From the sequence record PP526941.1: a stretch of DNA of 64,000 bases, one strand, 5' to 3'. Of this stretch, positions 18,577 to 43,156 are shown piece by piece. The stretch's first letter is position 1, and every line of letters begins with the position of its first letter. The stretch comes from Escherichia phage vB_EcoM_ECO78. A program made the translations under genes and the position numbers. Under the pieces are notes generated by a model. The model was not told the DNA's origin. It worked only from the letters and a program-made list of their open reading frames with translations, and searched no databases.

Positions 18577-21500
18577 ATGGCCGAGATTAAAAGAAAGTTC
18601 AGAGCAGAAGATGGTCTGGACGCAGGTGGTGATAAAATAATCAACGTAGCTTTAGCTGATCGTACCGTAGGAACTGACGGTGTTAACGTTGATTACTTAA
18701 TTCAAGAAAACACAGTTCAACAATATGATCCAACTCGTGGATATTTAAAAGATTTTGTAATCATTTATGATAACCGCTTTTGGGCTGCTATAAATGATAT
18801 TCCAAAACCAGCAGGAGCTTTTAATAGCGGACGCTGGAGAGCATTACGTACGGACGCAAACTGGATTACAGTCTCATCTGGTTCATATCAATTAAAATCC
18901 GGTGAAGCTATTTCGGTTAACACTGCAGCTGGTAATGACATCACGTTTACTTTACCATCTTCTCCAATTGATGGTGATACTATCGTTCTCCAAGATATTG
19001 GAGGAAAACCTGGAGTTAACCAAGTTTTAATTGTAGCTCCAGTGCAAAGTATTGTAAACTTCAGAGGTGAACAAGTACGTTCAGTACTAATGACTCATCC
19101 AAAGTCACAGCTAGTTTTAATTTTTAGTAATCGTCTGTGGCAAATGTATGTTGCTGATTATAGTAGAGAAGCTATAGTTGTAACACCAGCGAATACTTAT
19201 CAAGCGCAATCAAATGATTTTATCGTACGTAGATTTACTTCTGCTGCACCGATAAATATTAAACTTCCACGATTTGCTAATCATGGCGATATTATTAATT
19301 TCGTTGATTTAGATAAACTAAATCCACTTTATCATACAATTGTTACTACATACGATGAAACGACTTCAGTACAAGAAGTTGGAACTCATTCCATTGAAGG
19401 CCGTACAACGATTGACGGTTTCTTGATGTTTGATGATAATGAGAAATTGTGGAGATTGTTTGACGGGGATAGTAAAGCGCGTTTACGTATCATAACGACT
19501 AATTCTAATATTCGTCCAAATGAAGAAGTTATGGTATTTGGTGCGAATAACGGAACAGCTCAGACAATTGAGCTTAAGCTTCCAACTAATATTTCTGTTG
19601 GTGATACTGTTAAAATTTCCATGAATTACATGAGAAAAGGACAAACAGTTAAAATCAAAGCTGCTGATGAAGATAAAATTGCTTCTTCAGTTCAATTGCT
19701 GCAATTCCCAAAACGCTCAGAATATCCACCTGAAGCTGAATGGGTTACAGTCCAAGAATTAGTTTTTAATGGTGAAACTAATTATGTTCCAGTTTTAGAG
19801 CTTGCTTATATAGAAGATTCTGATGGAAAATACTGGGTTGTACAGCAAAATGTTCCAACCGTAGAAAGAGTTGATTCTTTGAATGATTCTACTAGAGCAA
19901 GATTAGGCGTAATTGCTTTAGCTACACAAGCCCAAGCTAATGTCGATTTAGAAAATTCTCCGCAAAAAGAATTAGCAATTACTCCAGAAACATTAGCTAA
20001 CCGTACTGCTACTGAAACTCGCAGAGGTATTGCAAGAATAGCAACTACTGCTCAAGTGAATCAGAACACCACATTCTCTTTTGCTGACGATATTATCATC
20101 ACTCCTAAAAAGCTGAATGAAAGAACTGCTACAGAAACTCGCAGAGGTGTTGCTGAAATTGCTACGCAACAGGAAACTAATGCAGGAACCGATGATACTA
20201 CAATCATCACTCCTAAAAAGCTTCAAGCTCGTCAAGGTTCTGAATCATTATCTGGTATCGTAACTTTTGTATCTACTGCAGGTGCTACTCCAGCTTCTAG
20301 CCGTGAATTAAATGGTACGAATGTTTATAATAAAAACACTAATAATTTAGTTGTTTCACCTAAAGCTTTGGATCAGTATAAAGCTACTCCAACACAGCAA
20401 GGTGCAGTAATTTTAGCAGTTGAAAGTGAAGTAATTGCTGGACAAAGTCAGGAAGGATGGGCAAATGCAGTTGTAACGCCAGAAACGTTACATAAAAAGA
20501 CATCAACTGATGGAAGAATTGGTTTAATTGAAATTGCTACGCAAAGTGAAGTTAATACAGGAACTGATTATACTCGTGCAGTCACTCCTAAAACTTTAAA
20601 TGACCGTAGAGCAACTGAAAGTTTAAGTGGTATAGCTGAAATTGCTACACAAGTTGAATTCGACGCAGGCGTCGACGATACTCGTATCTCTACACCATTA
20701 AAAATTAAAACCAGATTTAATAGTACTGATCGTACTTCTGTTGTTGCTCTATCTGGATTAGTTGAATCAGGAACTCTCTGGGACCATTATACCCTTAATA
20801 TTCTTGAAGCAAATGAGACACAACGTGGTACACTTCGTGTAGCTACACAAGTTGAAGCTGCTGCAGGAACATTAGATAATGTTTTAATAACTCCTAAAAA
20901 GCTTTTAGGTACTAAATCTACCGAATCGCAAGAAGGTGTTATTAAAGTTGCAACACAGTCTGAAACTGTGACTGGAACGTCAGCAAATACTGCTGTATCT
21001 CCAAAAAATTTAAAGTGGATTGTGCAGAGTGAACCAACATGGGCTGCTACTACGGCGATAAGAGGGTTTGTTAAAACTTCATCTGGTTCAATTACATTCG
21101 TTGGTAATGATACAGTCGGTTCTACACAGGACTTAGAGTTATACGAGAAAAATAATTATGCAGTATCACCATATGAATTAAACCGCGTACTTGCTAACTA
21201 TTTGCCATTGAAAGCAAAAGCTGCAGATAGTAATTTATTGGATGGTCTAGATTCATCTCAGTTCATTCGTAGGGATATTGCCCAGACAGTTAATGGTTCA
21301 CTAACCTTAACCCAACAAACGAATCTGAGTGCCCCTCTTGTATCATCTAGTACTGCTACGTTTGGTGGTTCAGTTTCGGCAAATAGTACATTAACTATTT
21401 CTAACTCTGGAACAGCAACTCGTCTGATTTTTGAGAAAGGACCTCAAACTGGAACTAATCCAGCGCAGACGATGACTATCAGAGTTTGGGGAAATCAGTT

Positions 21501-22446
21501 TGGCGGCGGATCAGATACAACACGTTCTACTGTATTTGAAGTTGGTGATGAAACGTCTAATCATTTTTATTCTCAACGTAATAAAGCTGGTAATATAACG
21601 TTTAGCATTAATGGTACTGTGATGCCAATAAATGTTAACGCTTCAGGCACGTTGAATGCGAATGGCGTTGCAACATTCGGTCGTTCAGTTACAGCCAATG
21701 GTGAATTCATTAGCAAGTCTGCAAATGCTTTTAGAGCAATTAGTGGTGATTACGGATTCTTTATTCGTAATGATGCTGCTAATACCTATTTTATGCTCAC
21801 TGCATCCGGTGATCAGACTGGCGGATTTAATGGATTACGTCCTTTGGCTATTAATAATGCATCTGGCCAAGTAACGATTGGTGAAAGCTTAATCATTGCC
21901 AAAGGTGCTACTATAAATTCAGGTGGTTTGACTGTTAACTCGAGAATTCGTTCTCAGGGTAATAAAACATCTGATTTATATACCCGTGCACCAACATCTG
22001 ATACAGTAGGATTCTGGTCAATTGATATTAATGATTCAGCTACTTATAACCAGTTCCCAGGTTATTTTAAAATGGTTGAAAAAACTAATGAAGTGACTGG
22101 ACTTCCATACTTAGAACGTGGCGAAGAAGTTAAATCTCCTGGTACACTGACTCAGTTTGGTAATACACTTGATTCGCTTTACCAAGATTGGATTACTTAT
22201 CCAACGACGCCAGAAGCACGTACCACTCGCTGGACACGTACATGGCAGAAAACCAAAAACTCTTGGTCAAGTTTTGTTCAGGTATTTGACGGAGGTAACC
22301 CTCCTCAACCATCTGATATCGGTGCTTTACCATCTGATAATGCTACAATGGGAAATCTTACTATTCGTGATTTCTTACGAATTGGTAATGTTCGCATTGT
22401 TCCTGACCCAGTGAATAAAACGGTTAAATTTGAATGGGTTGAATAA
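18577..22446 (+). CDS. 34: gp34 long tail fibre proximal subunit (1289 aa)
   Basis: Length identical to T4 gp34; GGAG RBS; internal degenerate repeats. Confidence 0.95.
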   Translation: MAEIKRKFRAEDGLDAGGDKIINVALADRTVGTDGVNVDYLIQENTVQQYDPTRGYLKDFVIIYDNRFWAAINDIPKPAGAFNSGRWRALRTDANWITVSSGSYQLKSGEAISVNTAAGNDITFTLPSSPIDGDTIVLQDIGGKPGVNQVLIVAPVQSIVNFRGEQVRSVLMTHPKSQLVLIFSNRLWQMYVADYSREAIVVTPANTYQAQSNDFIVRRFTSAAPINIKLPRFANHGDIINFVDLDKLNPLYHTIVTTYDETTSVQEVGTHSIEGRTTIDGFLMFDDNEKLWRLFDGDSKARLRIITTNSNIRPNEEVMVFGANNGTAQTIELKLPTNISVGDTVKISMNYMRKGQTVKIKAADEDKIASSVQLLQFPKRSEYPPEAEWVTVQELVFNGETNYVPVLELAYIEDSDGKYWVVQQNVPTVERVDSLNDSTRARLGVIALATQAQANVDLENSPQKELAITPETLANRTATETRRGIARIATTAQVNQNTTFSFADDIIITPKKLNERTATETRRGVAEIATQQETNAGTDDTTIITPKKLQARQGSESLSGIVTFVSTAGATPASSRELNGTNVYNKNTNNLVVSPKALDQYKATPTQQGAVILAVESEVIAGQSQEGWANAVVTPETLHKKTSTDGRIGLIEIATQSEVNTGTDYTRAVTPKTLNDRRATESLSGIAEIATQVEFDAGVDDTRISTPLKIKTRFNSTDRTSVVALSGLVESGTLWDHYTLNILEANETQRGTLRVATQVEAAAGTLDNVLITPKKLLGTKSTESQEGVIKVATQSETVTGTSANTAVSPKNLKWIVQSEPTWAATTAIRGFVKTSSGSITFVGNDTVGSTQDLELYEKNNYAVSPYELNRVLANYLPLKAKAADSNLLDGLDSSQFIRRDIAQTVNGSLTLTQQTNLSAPLVSSSTATFGGSVSANSTLTISNSGTATRLIFEKGPQTGTNPAQTMTIRVWGNQFGGGSDTTRSTVFEVGDETSNHFYSQRNKAGNITFSINGTVMPINVNASGTLNANGVATFGRSVTANGEFISKSANAFRAISGDYGFFIRNDAANTYFMLTASGDQTGGFNGLRPLAINNASGQVTIGESLIIAKGATINSGGLTVNSRIRSQGNKTSDLYTRAPTSDTVGFWSIDINDSATYNQFPGYFKMVEKTNEVTGLPYLERGEEVKSPGTLTQFGNTLDSLYQDWITYPTTPEARTTRWTRTWQKTKNSWSSFVQVFDGGNPPQPSDIGALPSDNATMGNLTIRDFLRIGNVRIVPDPVNKTVKFEWVE

Positions 22447-22454
22447 GAGGTATT

Positions 22455-23570
22455 ATGGAAAAATTTATGGCAGAGTTTGGACAAGGATATGTCCAAACGC
22501 CGTTTTTATCGGAAAGCAATTCAGTAAGATATAAAATAAGCATAGCGGGTTCTTGCCCGCTTTCTACTGCAGGGCCATACGTTAAATTTCAAGATAATCC
22601 TGTAGGAAGTCAAACATTTAGCGCAGGTCTTCATTTAAGAGTTTTTGATCCTTCCACAGGAGCATTAGTTGATAGTAAGTCATATGCTTTTTCTACTTCA
22701 AATGATACTACATCAGCTGCTTTTGTTAGTTTCATGAATTCTTTGACGAATAATCGAATTGTTGCTATATTAACTAACGGAAAGGTTAATTTTCCTCCTG
22801 AAGTAGTATCTTGGTTAAGAACCGCCGGAACGTCTGCTTTTCCATCTGATTCTATATTGTCAAGATTCGACGTATCATATGCTGCTTTTTATACTTCTTC
22901 TAAAAGAGCTATCGCATTAGAGCATGTTAAACTGAGTAATAGAAAAAGCACAGATGATTATCAAACTATTTTAGATGTAGTATTTGACAGTTTAGAAGAT
23001 GTCGGAGCTACAGGATTTCCAAGAAGAACGTATGAAAGCGTTGAGCAATTTATGTCAGCTGTTGGTGGAACTAATAACGAAATTGCGCGTCTACCAACTT
23101 CAGCTGCTATAAGTAAATTATCTGATTATAATTTAATTCCTGGTGATGTTCTTTATCTTAAAGCTCAGTTATATGCTGATGCTGATTTACTTGCACTTGG
23201 AACTACGAATATATCCATTCGATTTTATAATGCATCAAATGGATATATTTCCTCGACACATGCTGAATTTACTGGGCAAGCTGGGTCATGGGAATTAAAG
23301 GAAGATTATGTAGTTGTTCCAGAAAACGCAGTAGGATTTACGATATACGCACAGAGAACTGCACAAGCTGGCCAAGGTGGCATGAGAAATTTAAGCTTTT
23401 CTGAAGTATCAAGAAATGGCGGCATTTCAAAACCCGCTGAATTTGGCGTCAACGGTATTCGAGTTAATTATATCTGTGAATCTGCTTCACCTCCGGATAT
23501 AATGGTACTTCCTACACAAGCATCGTCTAAAACTGGTAAAGTGTTTGGGCAAGAATTTAGAGAAGTATAA
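22455..23570 (+). CDS. 35: gp35 long tail fibre hinge connector (371 aa)
   Basis: Size and position in 34-38 operon. Confidence 0.9.
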   Translation: MEKFMAEFGQGYVQTPFLSESNSVRYKISIAGSCPLSTAGPYVKFQDNPVGSQTFSAGLHLRVFDPSTGALVDSKSYAFSTSNDTTSAAFVSFMNSLTNNRIVAILTNGKVNFPPEVVSWLRTAGTSAFPSDSILSRFDVSYAAFYTSSKRAIALEHVKLSNRKSTDDYQTILDVVFDSLEDVGATGFPRRTYESVEQFMSAVGGTNNEIARLPTSAAISKLSDYNLIPGDVLYLKAQLYADADLLALGTTNISIRFYNASNGYISSTHAEFTGQAGSWELKEDYVVVPENAVGFTIYAQRTAQAGQGGMRNLSFSEVSRNGGISKPAEFGVNGIRVNYICESASPPDIMVLPTQASSKTGKVFGQEFREV

Positions 23571-23632: not shown

Positions 23633-24295
23633 ATGGCTGATTTAAAAGTAGGTTCAACAACCGGGGGCTCTGTCATTTGGCATCAAGGAAATTTTCCATT
23701 GAATCCAGCCGGTGACGATGTACTCTATAAATCATTTAAAATATATTCAGAATATAATAAACCACAAGCTGCTGATAACGATTTCGTTTCTAAAGCTAAT
23801 GGTGGTACTTACGCCGCGACTGTTCGATTTAATGGAGGCGTACATGTTCCTACTATAGGTAGTAGTCAACAGTGTGGTGTTTATCCAGGTAACGGTGATG
23901 CAGCTACTTTTGCTATGGCAAATATTGACATCGTTTCGTGGAATGGTATTGGTTTTAAATCATCACAAGGTTCAGCAGACCGAACTGTTGTAATTAACGC
24001 TCGTACCGGTGATATCAGCAGTAAGGGCGGTTTTTATGCAACTGGTCCTGTCCGTTCTAACGCTACTGCTCCGGTTGCAGCAAATGACCTTACTAGAAAG
24101 GACTATGTTGATGGAGCAATAAATACTGTTACGGAAAATGCGAACTCTAGAGTGTTACGATCTGGCGACACTATGACGGGTAACTTAACCGCACCAAATT
24201 TTTTCTCGCAGAATCCTGCGTCTCAACCTTCACACGTTCCACGATTTGACCAAATCGTAATTAAGGATTCTGTTCAAGATTTCGGCTATTATTAA
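23633..24295 (+). CDS. 36: gp36 long tail fibre distal connector (220 aa)
   Basis: Size and position. Confidence 0.9.
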
Positions 24296-24303
24296 GAGGA
24301 CTT

Positions 24304-27300
24304 ATGGCTACTTTAAAACAAATACAATTTAAAAGAAGCAAAACCGCAGGTGCACGTCCTGCTGCTTCAGTATTAGCCGAAGGTGAATTGGCTATAAACT
24401 TAAAAGATAGAACACTTTTTACTAAAGATGATTCGGGAAATATCATTGATCTAGGTATTGCTAAAGGCGGTCAAATTGATGGAAATGTGACTATCAATGG
24501 TCTTTTAAGATTAAATGGGGATTATACACAAACTGGTGGAATGACCGTAAATGGACCTATTGGTTCTACTGAAGGCGTATCCGCCTTAGTTTTTAGATCT
24601 ATGCGAGGGTCATTTTACGCAAGAGCAACAAATGATACTTCCAATGCCCATCTTTGGTTTGAAAATACAAATGGATCAGAGAGAGGGGTTTTATATTCAA
24701 AACCACAGTCTGAAAATGAAGGCGTAATTACAATGCGTGTTCGTCAAGGAACCGCTGCGGGAGCTCAAAATTCAGAATTTCATTTCATTTCTACTGATGG
24801 CGGTATCTTCCAGGCACGCAAATTAACTGCTTTAACTTCTATTAGTACACCAACTATTAGTGTTAATTTAATTAATCATGATTCTAAAGCCTTTGGACAA
24901 TACGATTCGCAATCATTAGTTCAGTATGTTTATCCTGGAACTGGTGAAACTAACGGAGTAAACTATCTTCGTAAAGTTCGAGCTAAATCAGGTGGCACTA
25001 TGTGGCATGAGCTTTGTACTGCTCAGACTGGCCAGGCTGATGAAATGTCTTGGTGGACAGGTAATACTCCATCATCTAAACAATATGGCATTCGTAATGA
25101 CGGACGAATGGCAGGCCGTAATAGCCTTGCATTAGGTACATTCACTACGGGTTTCCCGTCTAGTGATTATGGTAACGTCGGTGTAATGGGCGATAAGTAT
25201 CTTGTTCTCGGTGACACTGTAACCGGTCTGAAATATATTAAGCAAGGTGTTTATGATTTAGTTGGTGGAGGTTATTCCGTTGCATCTGTTACTCCAGATA
25301 GTTTCCGTAGTACTCGTAAAGGTATATTTGGTCGCTCAGAAGACCAAGGTGCTACATGGAACATGCCTGGAAACAACGCCGCGTTTTTATCGGTTCAAAC
25401 ACAAGCTGATGAAAACACTGCTGGAGACGGCCAGACACATATTGGCTATAACTCAGGCGGTAAAATGAACCACTATTTCCGTGGTAAAGGCAAAACTAAT
25501 ATTAATACTCAAGAAGGCATGGAAGTTAACCCGGGTATTCTTAAACTAGTAACCGGTGCTAACAGTATTAGCTTTAACGCTGCAACAGGTAATATTGATT
25601 CTACATTAGCTTTTCGTCTTAATAAAGGTATAATTATTGATGGACCTGATAATCAGGGATTCCAATTTAATGCTCCGACGGCTGTAGATGGTACTAGAAG
25701 CATATACTGGAATAGTGGCACTCGCGCAGGTCAAAACAAAAACCCTGTTACAGTTAAAGTGTGGGGTAATTCATTTAACGCATCTGGTGATCGTAGTCGT
25801 GAAACCGTTTTTGAAGTAGCTGATGGGCAAGGTTACCATTTTTATTCTCAACGCGTAGCTCCTGCACCTGGTTCGACTGTCGGGCCTATTCAACTCCGAG
25901 TTAATGGTGGTTTATTAACTTCTGGTGGTATTACTGCTTCCGGTTCTATTGTTACTGAATCAAGTTTAGTTGCAAATAATGGATTATCTGTAAATGGTCA
26001 GGCTAAATTTGGCGGAACAGCAAACGCACTAAGAATTTGGAACGCTGAATATGGTGCTATTTTCCGTCGTTCGGAAAGTAACTTTTATATTATTCCAACC
26101 AATCAAAACGAAGGCGAAAGCGGAGACATTCACAGCTCTTTGAGACCTGTGAGAATAGGATTAAACGATGGCATGGTTGGGTTAGGAAGAGATTCTTTTA
26201 TAGTAGATCAAAATAATGCTTTAACTACTATAAACAGTAACTCTCGCATTAATGCCAACTTTAGAATGCAATTAGGACAAAATGCTTATATAGATATTGA
26301 GGCTTCTGATGGAATTCGCCCAACAGGTTGTGGTTCCTTTGCATCTCAGAATGACGTAAACGTCAGAGCTCCAATTTATATGAATATAGAGCGTACTGCT
26401 ACTTCTGAATATATTCCTATTGTTAAACAGCGTTATGTGCAAGGTGATAGCACTTATTCTATTGGGACATTAATTAATCAAGGAGATTTCCGTGTTCATT
26501 ACCGCCAAGGCACCGGTACGGGTGGCACTGATTTGAGTTGGGAATTCCGTCGCACAGGCGATTTCCGCGCGGCAGGTAAAATTATTGCTGGTGCTGCTAC
26601 TCTTGGCACTGATGGTAATATCACCGGTGGTTCTGGTAACTTTGCTAACCTGAATACCACATTAAATCGTAAGGTAAATTCCGGATTTGTAACATACGGT
26701 GCAACGGCCGGATGGTACAAATTCGCTACAGTAACGATGCCACAATCTACTTCTACTGTTTCATTTACTATAACTGGTGGTAAAGGATTTAATACCGGAC
26801 TGTTTACACAATGTGCTATAACAGAAATTGTTCTTCGTACTGGTAATGACCGCCCAGCAGGTTTAAACGCCGTGATGTATACCAGAACAGCGGCAGGTCT
26901 TACTGATATTGCTGTAGTTAATACCTCAGGAAATACATATGATGTCTATGTTGAAGCTGGCACTTATGCCAACCAATTAGCTTATACCTGGCATACAGTT
27001 GATAATGCTACCGTAGAAGTTATTGGCGCTTTTGGTCCTACTCAAGACCCGGTAGATTCTTTGCCGGCTAATTATGTTAAAGGCCAAGTAGCTAACATGC
27101 TTAACAACCTGGTAGACACAGGTAAAGTAAAACGTTATGTAGCAGATTCTGAAATTGCTATTAATAACCAAACGGGTCTTCGTATTACGAGTAATTATGA
27201 TAGATCAGGTTCTAATTCCGTTTTGTTTCGAAATGACGGTGGAAGCTTCTATATTTTACTGACTGACAAAAACTCTTCAGACGGCGATAATAAAGCAACT

Positions 27301-28227
27301 GAAGGTGATTGGAATGGAAAACGACCATTTTCAATTGATATGACTGCTGGTACTGTTCGTCTTGGCGAAAATACTTCTTTTAGTAAAGATGTTACTATTG
27401 ATGGAAACATTAATTCACGAGTTAAAGTTGTCGGACAGTGGAATGTTAGCTTTTCTGATATTTCAGATGTGACTCGTGACCGTTCTGCATTTTTAGTGAA
27501 TACGGGTGGCATTTCCAATACAAGTCAATCTTATTACCCGCTATTTTCTGGATACAGTTTTTTAACTGACGCGGGTTATCGCCAATCGTTTGAATTTGGA
27601 TGGTTAGGTGTTTCTGGTACTTGGCGTCAAGGTATTATTCGCATGCGTGGTGACAACGCATCGGGGCAACAGGCTCGTTGGACTTTTGATATGGATGGAA
27701 CATTTTATGCTCCTAAATTGGCTTGCGGTTCTACCGGTGCCCTCGGTATTAACACATCCAACGGATGGGGTGGTAACTCAATTGCAATTGGTGATAGCGA
27801 TACTGGTTTTAGACAAGTAGGCGATGGGCTTTTAGAAGCGTGGGCGAACAACGTTAAAGTTGTTAGATTCACTTCGAGCGAAGTTTATTCCGAGAAAAAC
27901 GTCAATGCTCCTAACGTTTATATTCGTTCTGATGTTCGCTTGAAATCTAATTTTAAACCTATTAAAAATGCGCTCGAAAGGGTTGAGCAACTTGATGGTT
28001 TAATCTATGACAAAGCTGAATATATAGGCGGTGAACCTGTTCAAACTGAAGCGGGTATTATAGCTCAAACGTTACAAGACGTTTTACCAGAAGCTGTCCG
28101 TGAATCAGAAGATAGCAAGGGTAATAAAATACTCACTGTTTCTTCTCAAGCCCAGATTGCTCTTCTGGTTGAAGCTGTGAAAACACTTTCTGCTCGTGTA
28201 AAAGAACTTGAATCTAAACTTATGTAA
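24304..28227 (+). CDS. 37: gp37 long tail fibre distal subunit (1307 aa) with C-terminal intramolecular chaperone domain
   Basis: Conserved fibre N-terminus [12 protein letters not shown]; C-terminal SDVRLK...coiled-coil tail typical of S74-type self-cleaving chaperone. Confidence 0.9.
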
Positions 28228-28228
28228 A

Positions 28229-28256
28229 AGAGGGCTTCGGCCCTCTAAGGATTTTT
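28229..28256 (+). terminator. UUCG-tetraloop hairpin after gene 37 (attenuator or RNA 3' end)
   Basis: AGAGGGC-UUCG-GCCCUCU at 28229-28246, T-run 28252-28256. Confidence 0.4.
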
Positions 28257-28257
28257 A

Positions 28258-29043
28258 ATGGCAATTGTAGGTGTTCCTGGCTGGATTGGTGAATCTGCTG
28301 TGAATGAAACTGGACAACGTTGGATGGATGCTGCGATGAAAGCTGTTCGTGTTTCAGTTCCCGGCTGGATGAGCTCAATGGCTGGACAATCTAAAGAAAT
28401 TCATTATAGCATTGGTGCTAGCAATTCTTACAATAAAGACACTCTTATTAACTGGATGAAAGCACAGGGGTCTACTCCGGTAGTAATTACTATTACAGGA
28501 AATATTGTTTCTTCATCGACAGGTCAACCATGCTTAGATTTTCCTAGCTCATTAACTAATGCATACGTGACACTTAATATCAATTCAGGCGTGCATGTTT
28601 GGGGTCGCGGCGGGAATGGTGGAAATAACTCTGCTGGCGGAGCAGGAGGAACTGCAATAAATAACGGAATTGGAACTAGATTACGTATTAATAACAATGG
28701 TGTTATCGCAGGCGGCGGTGGCGGCGGTGGCGGCGGATACTACTCTCCTTTTTCACAAATGAGATTGACTTTTGGTGGAGGAGGCGGTCGTCCATTTGGT
28801 GCGGCTGGCGGGTCTGCTAATATGGAACAGGGTGCTACTGCTGGTACTATTTCTGCGCCCGGTAAAGGGTCTGTCAACGGTATCTATAATGGCGGGAATG
28901 GTGGTGATGCCGGTGCCGCAGGAGGTAAATGTAATATTCGCGGTCAAGGATCAGAATATAATGGCGGCGCTGCTGGTAAAGCTGTTACTGGTAATGCTCC
29001 AACTTGGACTAAAGTTGGTACAATATATGGTGCAAGAGTATAA
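28258..29043 (+). CDS. 38: gp38 receptor-recognising adhesin, T2-type (261 aa, glycine-rich motifs)
   Basis: Conserved N-terminus plus five poly-Gly blocks characteristic of T2-type gp38. Confidence 0.85.
   Translation: MAIVGVPGWIGESAVNETGQRWMDAAMKAVRVSVPGWMSSMAGQSKEIHYSIGASNSYNKDTLINWMKAQGSTPVVITITGNIVSSSTGQPCLDFPSSLTNAYVTLNINSGVHVWGRGGNGGNNSAGGAGGTAINNGIGTRLRINNNGVIAGGGGGGGGGYYSPFSQMRLTFGGGGGRPFGAAGGSANMEQGATAGTISAPGKGSVNGIYNGGNGGDAGAAGGKCNIRGQGSEYNGGAAGKAVTGNAPTWTKVGTIYGARV
28711..28737 (+). repeat. (GGCGGCGGT)x3 simple repeat encoding poly-glycine inside gp38
   Basis: Direct reading of sequence. Confidence 0.9.
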
Positions 29044-29074: not shown

Positions 29075-29731
29075 ATGGCAGCACCTAGAATATCATTTTC
29101 GCCCTCTGATATTCTGTTGGGTGTTCTAGATCGCTTGTTCAAAGATAACGCTACCGGGAAGGTTCTTGCTTCCCGGGTAGCTGTCGTAATTCTTTTGTTT
29201 ATGATGGCGATTGTTTGGTATAGGGGAGATAGTTTCTTTGAGTACTATAAGCAATCAAAGTATGAAACATACAGTGAAATTATTGAAAAGGAAAGAAATG
29301 CACGCTTTGAATCTGTCGCCCTGGAACAACTCCAGATAGTTCATATATCATCTGAGGCAGACTTTAGTGCGGTGTATTCTTTCCGCCCTAAAAACTTAAA
29401 CTATTTTGTTGATATTATAGCATATGAAGGAAAATTACCTTCAACAATAAGTGAAAAATCACTTGGAGGATATCCTGTTGATAAAACTATGGATGAATAT
29501 ACAGTTCATTTAAATGGACGTCATTATTATTCCAACTCAAAATTTGCTTTTTTACCAACTAAAAAGCCTACTCCTGAAATAAATTACATGTACAGTTGTC
29601 CATATTTTAATTTGGATAATATCTATGCTGGAACGATAACCATGTACTGGTATAGAAATGATCATATAAGTAATGACCGCCTTGAATCAATATGTTCTCA
29701 GGCGGCCAGAATATTAGGAAGGGCTAAATAA
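29075..29731 (+). CDS. t: holin t (218 aa)
   Basis: Length and sequence match T4 holin; single N-terminal TM segment. Confidence 0.92.
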   Translation: MAAPRISFSPSDILLGVLDRLFKDNATGKVLASRVAVVILLFMMAIVWYRGDSFFEYYKQSKYETYSEIIEKERNARFESVALEQLQIVHISSEADFSAVYSFRPKNLNYFVDIIAYEGKLPSTISEKSLGGYPVDKTMDEYTVHLNGRHYYSNSKFAFLPTKKPTPEINYMYSCPYFNLDNIYAGTITMYWYRNDHISNDRLESICSQAARILGRAK

Positions 29732-40603: not shown

Positions 40604-40633
40604 ATTATACCACATCCTTGTGGTAAAGTAAAC
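40604..40633 (-). promoter_or_regulatory. early promoter (GTTTACT -35, TATAAT -10)
   Basis: Repeated promoter pattern overlapping gene 39 stop. Confidence 0.5.
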
Positions 40634-42450
40634 TATTGGCTCATCCATTCTTTACGAAGGTCAGCATTATCTCCCATGAGCATTTCAAAAAGCTCTTTCC
40701 AATTCTCAGGAAGTTTAACAACATCATATACTGGGTTTTGAATCATCTCACGATATTCAGATTTTTCCAAAGAGCCAAGTCCCTTAATATAACGGATGCT
40801 ATGTTTAGGTAGAGCATCTTTGGCACTCTCATATTCAGCGACTGTATAAAACCATTCTTGTTTTTTACCGACCTGAGCGATGATTACAGGAGTTTTGACG
40901 AAGCGAATTCTTCCTTGTTCAAACAGTTCTGGCCAATTACTAAAAAATCCGAGCAGAGAAGGATAAATGCTTCCTAGACCATCATGGTCGGCATCGGTCA
41001 TAATTGCAATATTATGATAATTCAAGTTTTCAGCCTTTTCACCAAGAACTAATCCGGTGATTGCGCAAATATCAAACAGTTCTTTATTTTTAAGCATATC
41101 AGCATATGACATACCCCAACTGTTGAGAACTTTACCACGCAATGGATAACCACCATGAAGTTCTTTATCACGAACATCAATAAGATATCCGATAGCAGAA
41201 TCACCCTCAGTCAAGAAAAGAGTAGTGTCAGCATCTTTACCACAAAGATTCGCTTTAATATGTTTATGAACCTTAGCTTTAGAAGCCTTTTTAGCTGCTT
41301 TAGTTTCTGCTGCCTTTTCTGCAGCCAATTTACGAGCCAAAGCAGCTTCAATAATTGGCATTAAAATTGCTTCATTATTTAAAATAGCACGTGAAATCTT
41401 TTTAGCATCAAGCTGAATATGACTACGAATTTCACCAAATGGAGAAGTCAAACGCTCTTTAGTCTGAGAATCAAATCGCATGTTTTTCATATCACGAACA
41501 AACATAACGATAGTCAAACATTCTTTAACACGTGCTTTAGTTACATCAATTTTGAACTTGCGTTTGATTTGTGGAATAAGGTCTTCACAAATATCATCCA
41601 TAACGCAGTCAATATGATGGCCACCATTCTTAGTATGAATGTTATTGACGTATGTTAATTGACGAAAACCATCCGGTGAACGACCAACCGCAATAGAACA
41701 ATTTTCTTGTTCTTGAACGATAGCATGCTCATCATATTGGCGTGCGTATTTCTTAAAATTACCCTGAACCTTTTTACCATTAAAGGTAAATTGAATATCA
41801 GGATAAACTACTGCAAGTGTCTGGAGACGATCTAGCGTAATGTCAAGATAAACTTGAGATAGCTCATTAGTTTCAAATGACATAAAATCAGGAATGAAAG
41901 TAACACGTGTTCCTTTCCATTTTCCAGGAATAGTTTCCCATGATTTATTTTCCATGCCATTTGAACAACGAACTACAATATTATTTTGACCATCGCCAGT
42001 TTCACCGACAAACATCACAGAAAAAATGTTAGTTAAACTAGAACCAACACCGTTCATACCGCCAGTGACGCGTTCTTTATCATCACCGAAGTTACCACCT
42101 GCTTTTGGAATAGTCCAGGCAGCAACAGGACCAGGAATTTCTTCACCGGTAGGTGTTTTAACCATCGCTTGTGGAATACCACGACCGTTATCTTCAACTG
42201 TTACTTGATTGTTTTTAATAGTAACATTAATTTTATTCGCGAATTTAAACTTAGTACGAATACCTTCATCTACTGAGTTATCGATAATTTCATCAATAAG
42301 CTTAACAAGACCAGGTACATACTGAACACTTTCCCATTTACCAAACAGAAAACGCTCATGCATTTCATTAGCGGAAGAGCCAATATACATGCCGCTACGC
42401 TTTTTGATATGTTCAATATCGCTCAGAATTTTAATTTCATTCTTAATCAT
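40633..42450 (-). CDS. 39: topoisomerase II large (ATPase, GyrB-like) subunit, contiguous 605 aa (T4 genes 39+60 equivalent)
   Basis: ATG at 42448-42450 (track start is GTG); C-terminus ...NADLRKEWMSQ continuous with no bypass gap. Confidence 0.92.
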   Translation of the reverse strand: MIKNEIKILSDIEHIKKRSGMYIGSSANEMHERFLFGKWESVQYVPGLVKLIDEIIDNSVDEGIRTKFKFANKINVTIKNNQVTVEDNGRGIPQAMVKTPTGEEIPGPVAAWTIPKAGGNFGDDKERVTGGMNGVGSSLTNIFSVMFVGETGDGQNNIVVRCSNGMENKSWETIPGKWKGTRVTFIPDFMSFETNELSQVYLDITLDRLQTLAVVYPDIQFTFNGKKVQGNFKKYARQYDEHAIVQEQENCSIAVGRSPDGFRQLTYVNNIHTKNGGHHIDCVMDDICEDLIPQIKRKFKIDVTKARVKECLTIVMFVRDMKNMRFDSQTKERLTSPFGEIRSHIQLDAKKISRAILNNEAILMPIIEAALARKLAAEKAAETKAAKKASKAKVHKHIKANLCGKDADTTLFLTEGDSAIGYLIDVRDKELHGGYPLRGKVLNSWGMSYADMLKNKELFDICAITGLVLGEKAENLNYHNIAIMTDADHDGLGSIYPSLLGFFSNWPELFEQGRIRFVKTPVIIAQVGKKQEWFYTVAEYESAKDALPKHSIRYIKGLGSLEKSEYREMIQNPVYDVVKLPENWKELFEMLMGDNADLRKEWMSQ

Positions 42451-42519
42451 CACTTATCCTCGTTTGGTTTCGGGAATATTATACTCCGGTAATCATAAAG
42501 CTAAAGGCCCGAAGGCCTT

Positions 42520-42780
42520 TTATTTAAAACGGATAGTCGAATCCTTGAAGAATAGACCAGAACATACGGTTCCTTCTACTTTCTGCCCGGTAGGTCCAAT
42601 AGCACGAAATCCAGTGTGTTGGAAATCATTTTCAGAGCAACCGAACCAGTTATATCCAGTGATTTCAATATTAGTAAAACCGCTTGAAGACAAAATTTTG
42701 GTTGCATTATCAGCATCAGTACATCCTGCTAAAGACACTGCTAATACTAATGCTGCGATAGAACGATTAACATATTTCAT
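42520..42780 (-). CDS. predicted lipoprotein (86 aa, lipobox LAGC)
   Basis: Signal peptide MKYVNRSIAALVLAVSLAGC. Confidence 0.5.
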   Translation of the reverse strand: MKYVNRSIAALVLAVSLAGCTDADNATKILSSSGFTNIEITGYNWFGCSENDFQHTGFRAIGPTGQKVEGTVCSGLFFKDSTIRFK

Positions 42781-42784
42781 AATT

Positions 42785-43156
42785 TCACTCAAATTTAATG
42801 GCTTGAAGGAGACTAATAATTCTCAAGCGACTTCTTTCATCTTTAACTGTAAAAGAAAGAGGGTCGCCAGATTTCATAGTAATAGTACATTCAAAATCAA
42901 AATCTTCGGAAACTTCTTTGAAGAAGTCAAATTCTTCATCATAAATTAAAACATTACTCTGACAACTATGAAGAATTTTTCCATCATTTCCAGATGCTGT
43001 ACTAATCATTGTAACATTATGACCTTTCATATCTTCAACGATAAATTCACTAGTCAATATTACAGCATTAATAGAACTATTCCTATTACTAGCAGAAAGT
43101 AGATATTTCTGTTCTTCACCTTCACGAATGCGATATTTCTTACCGATTTTAAACAT
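42785..43156 (-). CDS. hypothetical protein (123 aa)
   Basis: ORF upstream of lipoprotein gene. Confidence 0.5.
   Translation of the reverse strand: MFKIGKKYRIREGEEQKYLLSASNRNSSINAVILTSEFIVEDMKGHNVTMISTASGNDGKILHSCQSNVLIYDEEFDFFKEVSEDFDFECTITMKSGDPLSFTVKDERSRLRIISLLQAIKFE

Follow-up and report, generated by a model that had tools for sequence, protein, structure and literature searches.

A self-cleaving chaperone domain of the Peptidase S74 family predicted at the C-terminus of the long tail fibre protein gp37 of Escherichia phage vB_EcoM_ECO78

The tail fibre locus of Escherichia phage vB_EcoM_ECO78 (PP526941.1) raises the question of whether the precursor of the distal fibre subunit, gp37, ends in an intramolecular chaperone that cuts itself off at Ser1209, and whether this cut exposes the site at which gp38 binds. 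We analysed a stretch of 64,000 nucleotides from this phage (the window), in which gp37 is encoded by the fourth gene of an operon ordered gp34-gp35-gp36-gp37-gp38-holin t:

18577-22446: gp34, 1289 aa, named from its size and position
22455-23570, + strand: gp35, hinge protein, named from its position
23633-24295: gp36, Pfam Phage_T4_gp36
24304-28227, + strand: gene 37, precursor of the long tail fibre distal subunit, an open reading frame of 1307 aa (140.3 kDa)
28258-29043, + strand: gene 38, receptor adhesin of predicted T2/S16 type, 261 aa, Pfam GP38 (E=6.9e-72) and Gp38_N (E=7.2e-18)
29075-29731: holin t, Pfam Phage_holin_T

Residues 58-127 of gp35 match the Pfam domain ILEI (interleukin-like EMT inducer, FAM3 fold; E=6.3e-09, above the curated cutoff), an unexpected family name in a phage fibre hinge protein. 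Within gp37, the Pfam family Gp34_trimer, the domain through which the proximal fibre subunit trimerises at its C-terminal end, is matched in two stretches of residues 493-617 (25780-26154, + strand; E=2.1e-10), indicating that this module is common to the proximal and distal half-fibres. Elsewhere in the window, an open reading frame of 186 aa (42389-42949, + strand) stands within a block of minus-strand genes and overlaps the 5' end of a gene resembling the large subunit of topoisomerase II (40633-42453, - strand; GyrB, HATPase and Toprim domains); it has no Pfam match and may not be a real gene.

The sequence-only reading had placed a catalytic serine at codon 27928-27930 within the motif SDVRLK, and the open reading frame bears this out: the codon is TCT, encoding Ser1209, and is followed by GAT GTT CGC TTG AAA (Asp-Val-Arg-Leu-Lys), with Lys1214 at 27943-27945. 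Counting from Ser1209, 99 residues remain to the C-terminus, in agreement with the fragment of about 100 residues that had been proposed. The start originally given to the region (27870) has no special meaning, falling some 20 codons 5' of the Ser1209 codon, and its end (28227) is the final base of the gene 37 stop codon, 28225-28227. The features of the cleavage region and of the adjoining adhesin gene, all on the + strand, are as follows:

27736-27927, +: beta-helical segment that closes mature gp37 (approximately residues 1145-1208, with NAPNVYIR at its end); predicted from homology to be the gp38 docking tip
27925-27930, +: predicted scissile bond Arg1208/Ser1209 (codons CGT TCT), cut on the same side as in family members
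27928-27945, +: SDVRLK motif, residues 1209-1214 (Ser1209, Asp1210, Lys1214), with a presumed Ser/Lys catalytic dyad, from conservation and the start of the S74 profile
27928-28101, +: match to Pfam Peptidase_S74 (PF13884), residues 1209-1266, E=1.7e-13, 51 bits
27928-28224, +: C-terminal intramolecular chaperone domain, residues 1209-1307, predicted to be released, 99 aa, 10.9 kDa, pI 5.0
28144-28221, +: C-terminal helix, residues 1281-1306, with a heptad repeat; presumed trimeric coiled coil nucleating trimerisation, from the model and the heptad
28258-28383, +: N-terminal docking domain of gp38, residues 1-42, with Trp9, Trp22 and Trp37

In all six frames of the window, the pattern SD.R.K turns up only at the site in gp37. 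Composition alone predicts about one occurrence over the six frames (0.012 within gp37), which makes the motif weak evidence by itself. The case against chance is made by the match to Peptidase_S74, a family described in Pfam as 'chaperone of endosialidase'. This match spans the whole profile (1-58 of 58), lies well above the curated cutoff of 22 bits and starts on Ser1209, which is thereby aligned with position 1, so that the alignment to the S74 catalytic residues on which the proposal depended is found. The domain occupies the extreme C-terminus of gp37 and ends at the stop codon.

Conservation was assessed among 63 homologous proteins retrieved with gp37 residues 1100-1307 as the query, mostly fragments and short proteins rather than full-length gp37 clusters. 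Every S74-bearing homologue in this set carries S-D-x-x-x-K, the Ser of which lies 83-119 residues from the end of the protein, and about half have the YIR/SD junction, in which an Arg precedes the Ser. When gp37 was aligned with 22 diverse homologues (31-91% identical), Ser1209, Asp1210 and Lys1214 were invariant in 23/23 sequences, and Arg1212 and Leu1213 were conserved in at least 90%. The consensus S-D-x-R-x-K originally put forward consequently stands in its Ser, Asp and Lys, whereas its Arg is common but not universal, since SDENLK and SDVNSK also occur. An alignment-profile search of solved structures found gp37 of phage S16 (6F45_A, E=1.4e-17), with SDRRIK on SDVRLK, and the same profile found the tail fibre 8JOV (SDERLK aligned to SDVRLK), the MyRF ICA domain 7DC3, whose crystallised chain aligns an Ala to Ser1209, and 3GUD_A, the chaperone released from the neck appendage protein of GA-1 (SDERHK); SDIRMK of a T5-like fibre was likewise aligned to SDVRLK. 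The crystallised 3GUD_A chain begins at the very Ser that is aligned to Ser1209, which directly supports a cut on the N-terminal side of this residue.

A single-chain AlphaFold2 model of gp37 residues 1201-1307, built on the homologue alignment, reached a mean pLDDT of 93.8 and a pTM of 0.80. The model consists of a short helix (1223-1228), two strands (1233-1238 and 1245-1251), a further helix (1254-1260), a short hairpin (1265-1269 and 1275-1279) and one continuous helix (1281-1306), that is, an alpha/beta subdomain, a beta-hairpin and a long C-terminal helix, as in solved chaperone domains. Comparison of this fold with known structures gave the following scores:

7DC3, MyRF ICA domain: 9.2
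4UW8, T5 pb1 with chaperone: 7.6
3GW6, K1F endosialidase chaperone: 6.3
3GUD, GA-1 chaperone: 6.0
next match, unrelated: 3.0

The predicted fold matches only known chaperone domains, a result with which Foldseek agrees except for 4UW8. MyRF, a membrane-bound transcription factor of eukaryotes, is unrelated to tail fibres, while the K1F chaperone is the founding member of Peptidase S74. Neither K1F (3GW6) nor T5 pb1 (4UW8) was reached by the sequence profile of gp37 and its relatives; the link to both therefore rests on the fold and the Pfam family, and the resemblance to endosialidase and T5 pb1 chaperones that had been suggested from the letters is confirmed by the predicted fold, though not by sequence profile. 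A coiled-coil tail had also been anticipated. The final 27 residues (1281-1307) place Ile, Leu or Val at 7/8 a/d positions of one heptad register, and the modelled helix is presumed able to form a trimeric coiled coil; helix and heptad are real, but they lie in the last quarter of the domain and not directly after SDVRLK. The corresponding helix of T5 pb1 is a triple coiled coil and the K1F chaperone likewise ends in a trimeric coiled coil (PMC4690869). On this evidence, gp37 ends in an intramolecular chaperone of the Peptidase S74 family, formed by residues 1209-1307.

The reaction of this family has been described for T5 pb1, in which the Thr1263-Ser1264 bond is cut, recombinant fragments cleave themselves in E. 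coli and the S1264A substitution blocks autoproteolysis (PMC4690869). Lys1269 adjoins Ser1264 in T5 (PMC4690869), and this dyad is matched here by Ser1209 and Lys1214, the Lys again standing five residues after the Ser. An Arg from the neighbouring chain has been proposed to tie cleavage of pb1 to correct folding of the trimer (PMC4690869). In T5 and K1F this sensor Arg and an Asp are supplied by the beta-helix ahead of the chaperone in an adjacent chain, and the residue before the Ser is a further accessory of the mechanism. Arg1170, Arg1188 and Arg1208 stand N-terminal of Ser1209 in the gp37 translation. The domain here is compact, having 99 residues compared to 133 in T5 and 113 in S16. Its hairpin (1265-1279) falls far short of the T5 'tentacle' hairpin, which spans residues 1332-1371 (PMC4690869), so that the grip of the chaperone on the fibre may differ in detail. 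The K1F domain, which is carried on a tailspike enzyme rather than a fibre, is larger and has longer tentacles (PMC4690869). The MyRF ICA domain, the closest fold, is equally compact, and the short hairpin and compact build of the domain here accord with that match. These differences leave its membership intact: it is an ordinary member of the family.

A close characterised relative is gp37 of phage T2 (AP018813; L002:10028-14053), a protein of 1341 aa that is 62% identical to gp37 over the full length and is encoded in the same operon order, gp34-35-36-37-38-t. Large indels distinguish the two in the shaft, but the site context NAPNVYIR/SD(V/I) is identical (SDIRLK in T2, SDVRLK here) and 87/99 of the last residues agree, leaving 12 conservative-looking substitutions in the chaperone domain. 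For T2 gp37, proteolytic processing followed by capping with gp38 has been reported (Drexler, Riede and Henning 1986, cited in PMC3157838), and the gp38 adhesin that caps the cleaved T2 fibre is of the same kind as that encoded here. No paper stating how many residues T2 gp37 loses was found in the literature searched. The gp37 of S16 also ends in an S74 domain, preceded by a homologous beta-helix and by an insertion just before the site relative to gp37 here, and the junction reads DLNVS^S rather than NVYIR^S; it is described as autocleaved, with reference to the 2018 structure paper, in PMC7917993 and PMC7289586, and the former places the cut at S^S and has the gp38 site exposed only after cleavage. 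For Yersinia T4-like phages, PMC7917993 predicts DVYIR^SDGRLKI, to be compared with NVYIR^SDVRLKS here.

That cleavage would expose the binding site of gp38, as the sequence-only reading had held, is supported by analogy with S16 and by the gene that follows. Gp38 is, judging by its sequence, of the T2/S16 adhesin type and not the T4 chaperone type: it matches S16 gp38 (6F45_D) with E=1.9e-48, its Trp9, Trp22 and Trp37 all align to Trp in S16, and glycine runs are visible in its translation. On the gp37 side, the segment before Ser1209 is matched by the stretch of S16 gp37 ahead of the chaperone domain (6F45_A, E=9.1e-11; the chaperone domain is also covered), and the same segment is present in T2 gp37. 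The S16 gp37-gp38 tip complex is PDB 6F45 (Dunne et al. 2018, as summarised in PMC7917993 and PMC6851490). In that complex, according to PMC6851490, the pre-chaperone segment is a trimeric beta-helix; its base, in the account of the authors of the structure, offers three hydrophobic pockets, equivalent by symmetry, that receive the gp38 tryptophans. PMC7917993 also describes the role of the three N-terminal tryptophans and identifies the equivalent of the DVYIR strand as the gp38 docking tip. By analogy, residues 1145-1208 would serve as the docking tip here.

The gap from the gene 37 stop to the start of gene 38 holds a fully paired hairpin of 7 bp, rich in G+C and closed by a UUCG tetraloop, that abuts the gene 38 Shine-Dalgarno sequence (28229-28246, + strand; AGAGGGC-UUCG-GCCCUCU, followed by AAGGAUUUUUAAUG). 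A consensus scan flagged it as terminator-like, and it looks like a terminator or an RNA-stabilising hairpin. A 61-nt stretch containing it folds as expected, with a stability not significantly above that of shuffled sequences (z=-1.36), and Rfam at gathering thresholds gave no matches across the whole 64-kb window.

Could the S74-like domain be present without being cleaved, staying on the mature fibre as a cap or trimerisation module while gp38 binds elsewhere? The residue before the Ser lends this some colour, being Arg1208 here, compared to Thr in T5 and Ser in S16 (PMC4690869, PMC7917993). Yet about half of the S74-bearing homologues share that same YIR/SD junction, the alignment shows no variation at the Ser, the Asp or the Lys, the T2 protein with its R/SD(I)RLK site and a tail identical at 87/99 residues is reported as processed and then capped by gp38 (PMC3157838), and the S16 gp38 site is said in PMC7917993 to become accessible only on cleavage; we consider a non-cleaving domain very improbable. 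A different possibility is that gp37 is processed nearby by a separate protease, either of the host or the phage prohead protease, for which the motif would be a recognition site only. The sequence and fold results do not distinguish cleavage in cis from cleavage in trans, and the 1986 work on T2 reportedly established processing without identifying or naming the protease. Against this, the family reaction is autocatalytic, as the self-cleaving pb1 fragments and the S1264A mutant demonstrate (PMC4690869), S16 gp37 is described as autocleaved in PMC7917993 and PMC7289586, and gp37 here conserves both the fold and the dyad, so that we give a separate protease as little credence as a domain that stays uncut.

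The reading of SDVRLK as a chance motif without function draws on the brevity of the pattern, six residues including two wildcards, and on the single occurrence expected in six frames of 64 kb. It is rejected, retaining next to no probability: the motif opens an S74 match that is significant and covers the entire profile, it is invariant among homologues and keeps its distance from the C-terminus in them, and the fold predicted for the domain that carries it has known chaperone domains as its only matches. The three alternatives together account for only a small remainder of the probability.

We prefer the account in which gp37 bears a self-cleaving S74 chaperone tail, cut at Ser1209, and gp38 caps the fibre thus produced, and assign to it a probability of about 0.9. 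The analysis shows the domain with its predicted fold and conserved residues, the gene of the partner, and a site nearly identical to that of T2; from these we infer, by analogy with the systems described above, cleavage, autocatalysis, dependence on folding and gp38 docking in vB_EcoM_ECO78. The C-terminal domains would bring three gp37 chains into register, helices 1281-1306 forming a trimeric coiled coil, and the C-terminal trimer would then template folding of the distal triple beta-helix from its C-terminal end. In a correctly folded trimer, Ser1209, activated by Lys1214, would cut the Arg1208-Ser1209 bond in each chain; three 10.9-kDa fragments would leave, converting the 140.3-kDa precursor to a mature gp37 of 129.4 kDa. 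The new C-terminal face, comprising three copies of NAPNVYIR, would accept one gp38 monomer, the N-terminal three-helix domain of which would insert Trp9, Trp22 and Trp37 into three symmetry-related pockets, and the docked gp38 would be the receptor-binding tip.

The feature is already known, being a described property of T2-type gp37 proteins, and the mechanism is documented for T2 and S16; as a discovery it carries small weight, since a known mechanism has been re-derived from raw sequence. It is quite improbable that the T2-type domain constitutes a distinct minimal S74 subclass, with different accessory residues (such as the Arg of YIR/SD) and a released, acidic 10.9-kDa trimer that has a second role, for example in timing the loading of gp38; the sole pointers to such a subclass are the size difference (99 aa, with a hairpin of about 15 residues) and the conserved Arg. 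The practical use lies in annotation and engineering, because the mature C-terminus of this gp37 allele can be set, as a prediction, at Arg1208. Where fibre tips are expressed or gp38 is swapped, the 99-residue chaperone should stay in the construct, and a 129.4-kDa chain and a 10.9-kDa fragment are to be expected.

The first 24 kb of the window are approximately 96-97% identical to many Tequatrovirus genomes, for example RB18 and vB_Eco_NR1, whereas the best full-length DNA match to gp37-gp38 (24304-29043) in the phage collection is only 88.6%, so that the allele is a mosaic distinct from that of T2. For the chaperone region the closest sequences (95-97%) come from another set of phages, KFS-EC3, vB_Eco_T-01 and Phaginator. 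The fibre locus is therefore pieced together from segments that were inherited separately. Around residues 1145-1202 (27736-27909), gp37 is 47-50% identical to many E. coli chromosomal 'phage tail proteins' that are without an S74 domain (P0017 and P0022-P0050, about 345 aa), the common segment including (K/R)Q.GDGLL. This homology ends a few residues before NVYIR/SD; past that point the prophage proteins continue into some 90 residues of unrelated C-terminal sequence. In the mosaicism of tail fibres, the cleavage junction therefore has the look of a boundary between modules, and YIR/SD would mark not only the predicted end of the mature fibre protein but also a recombination boundary between fibre modules.
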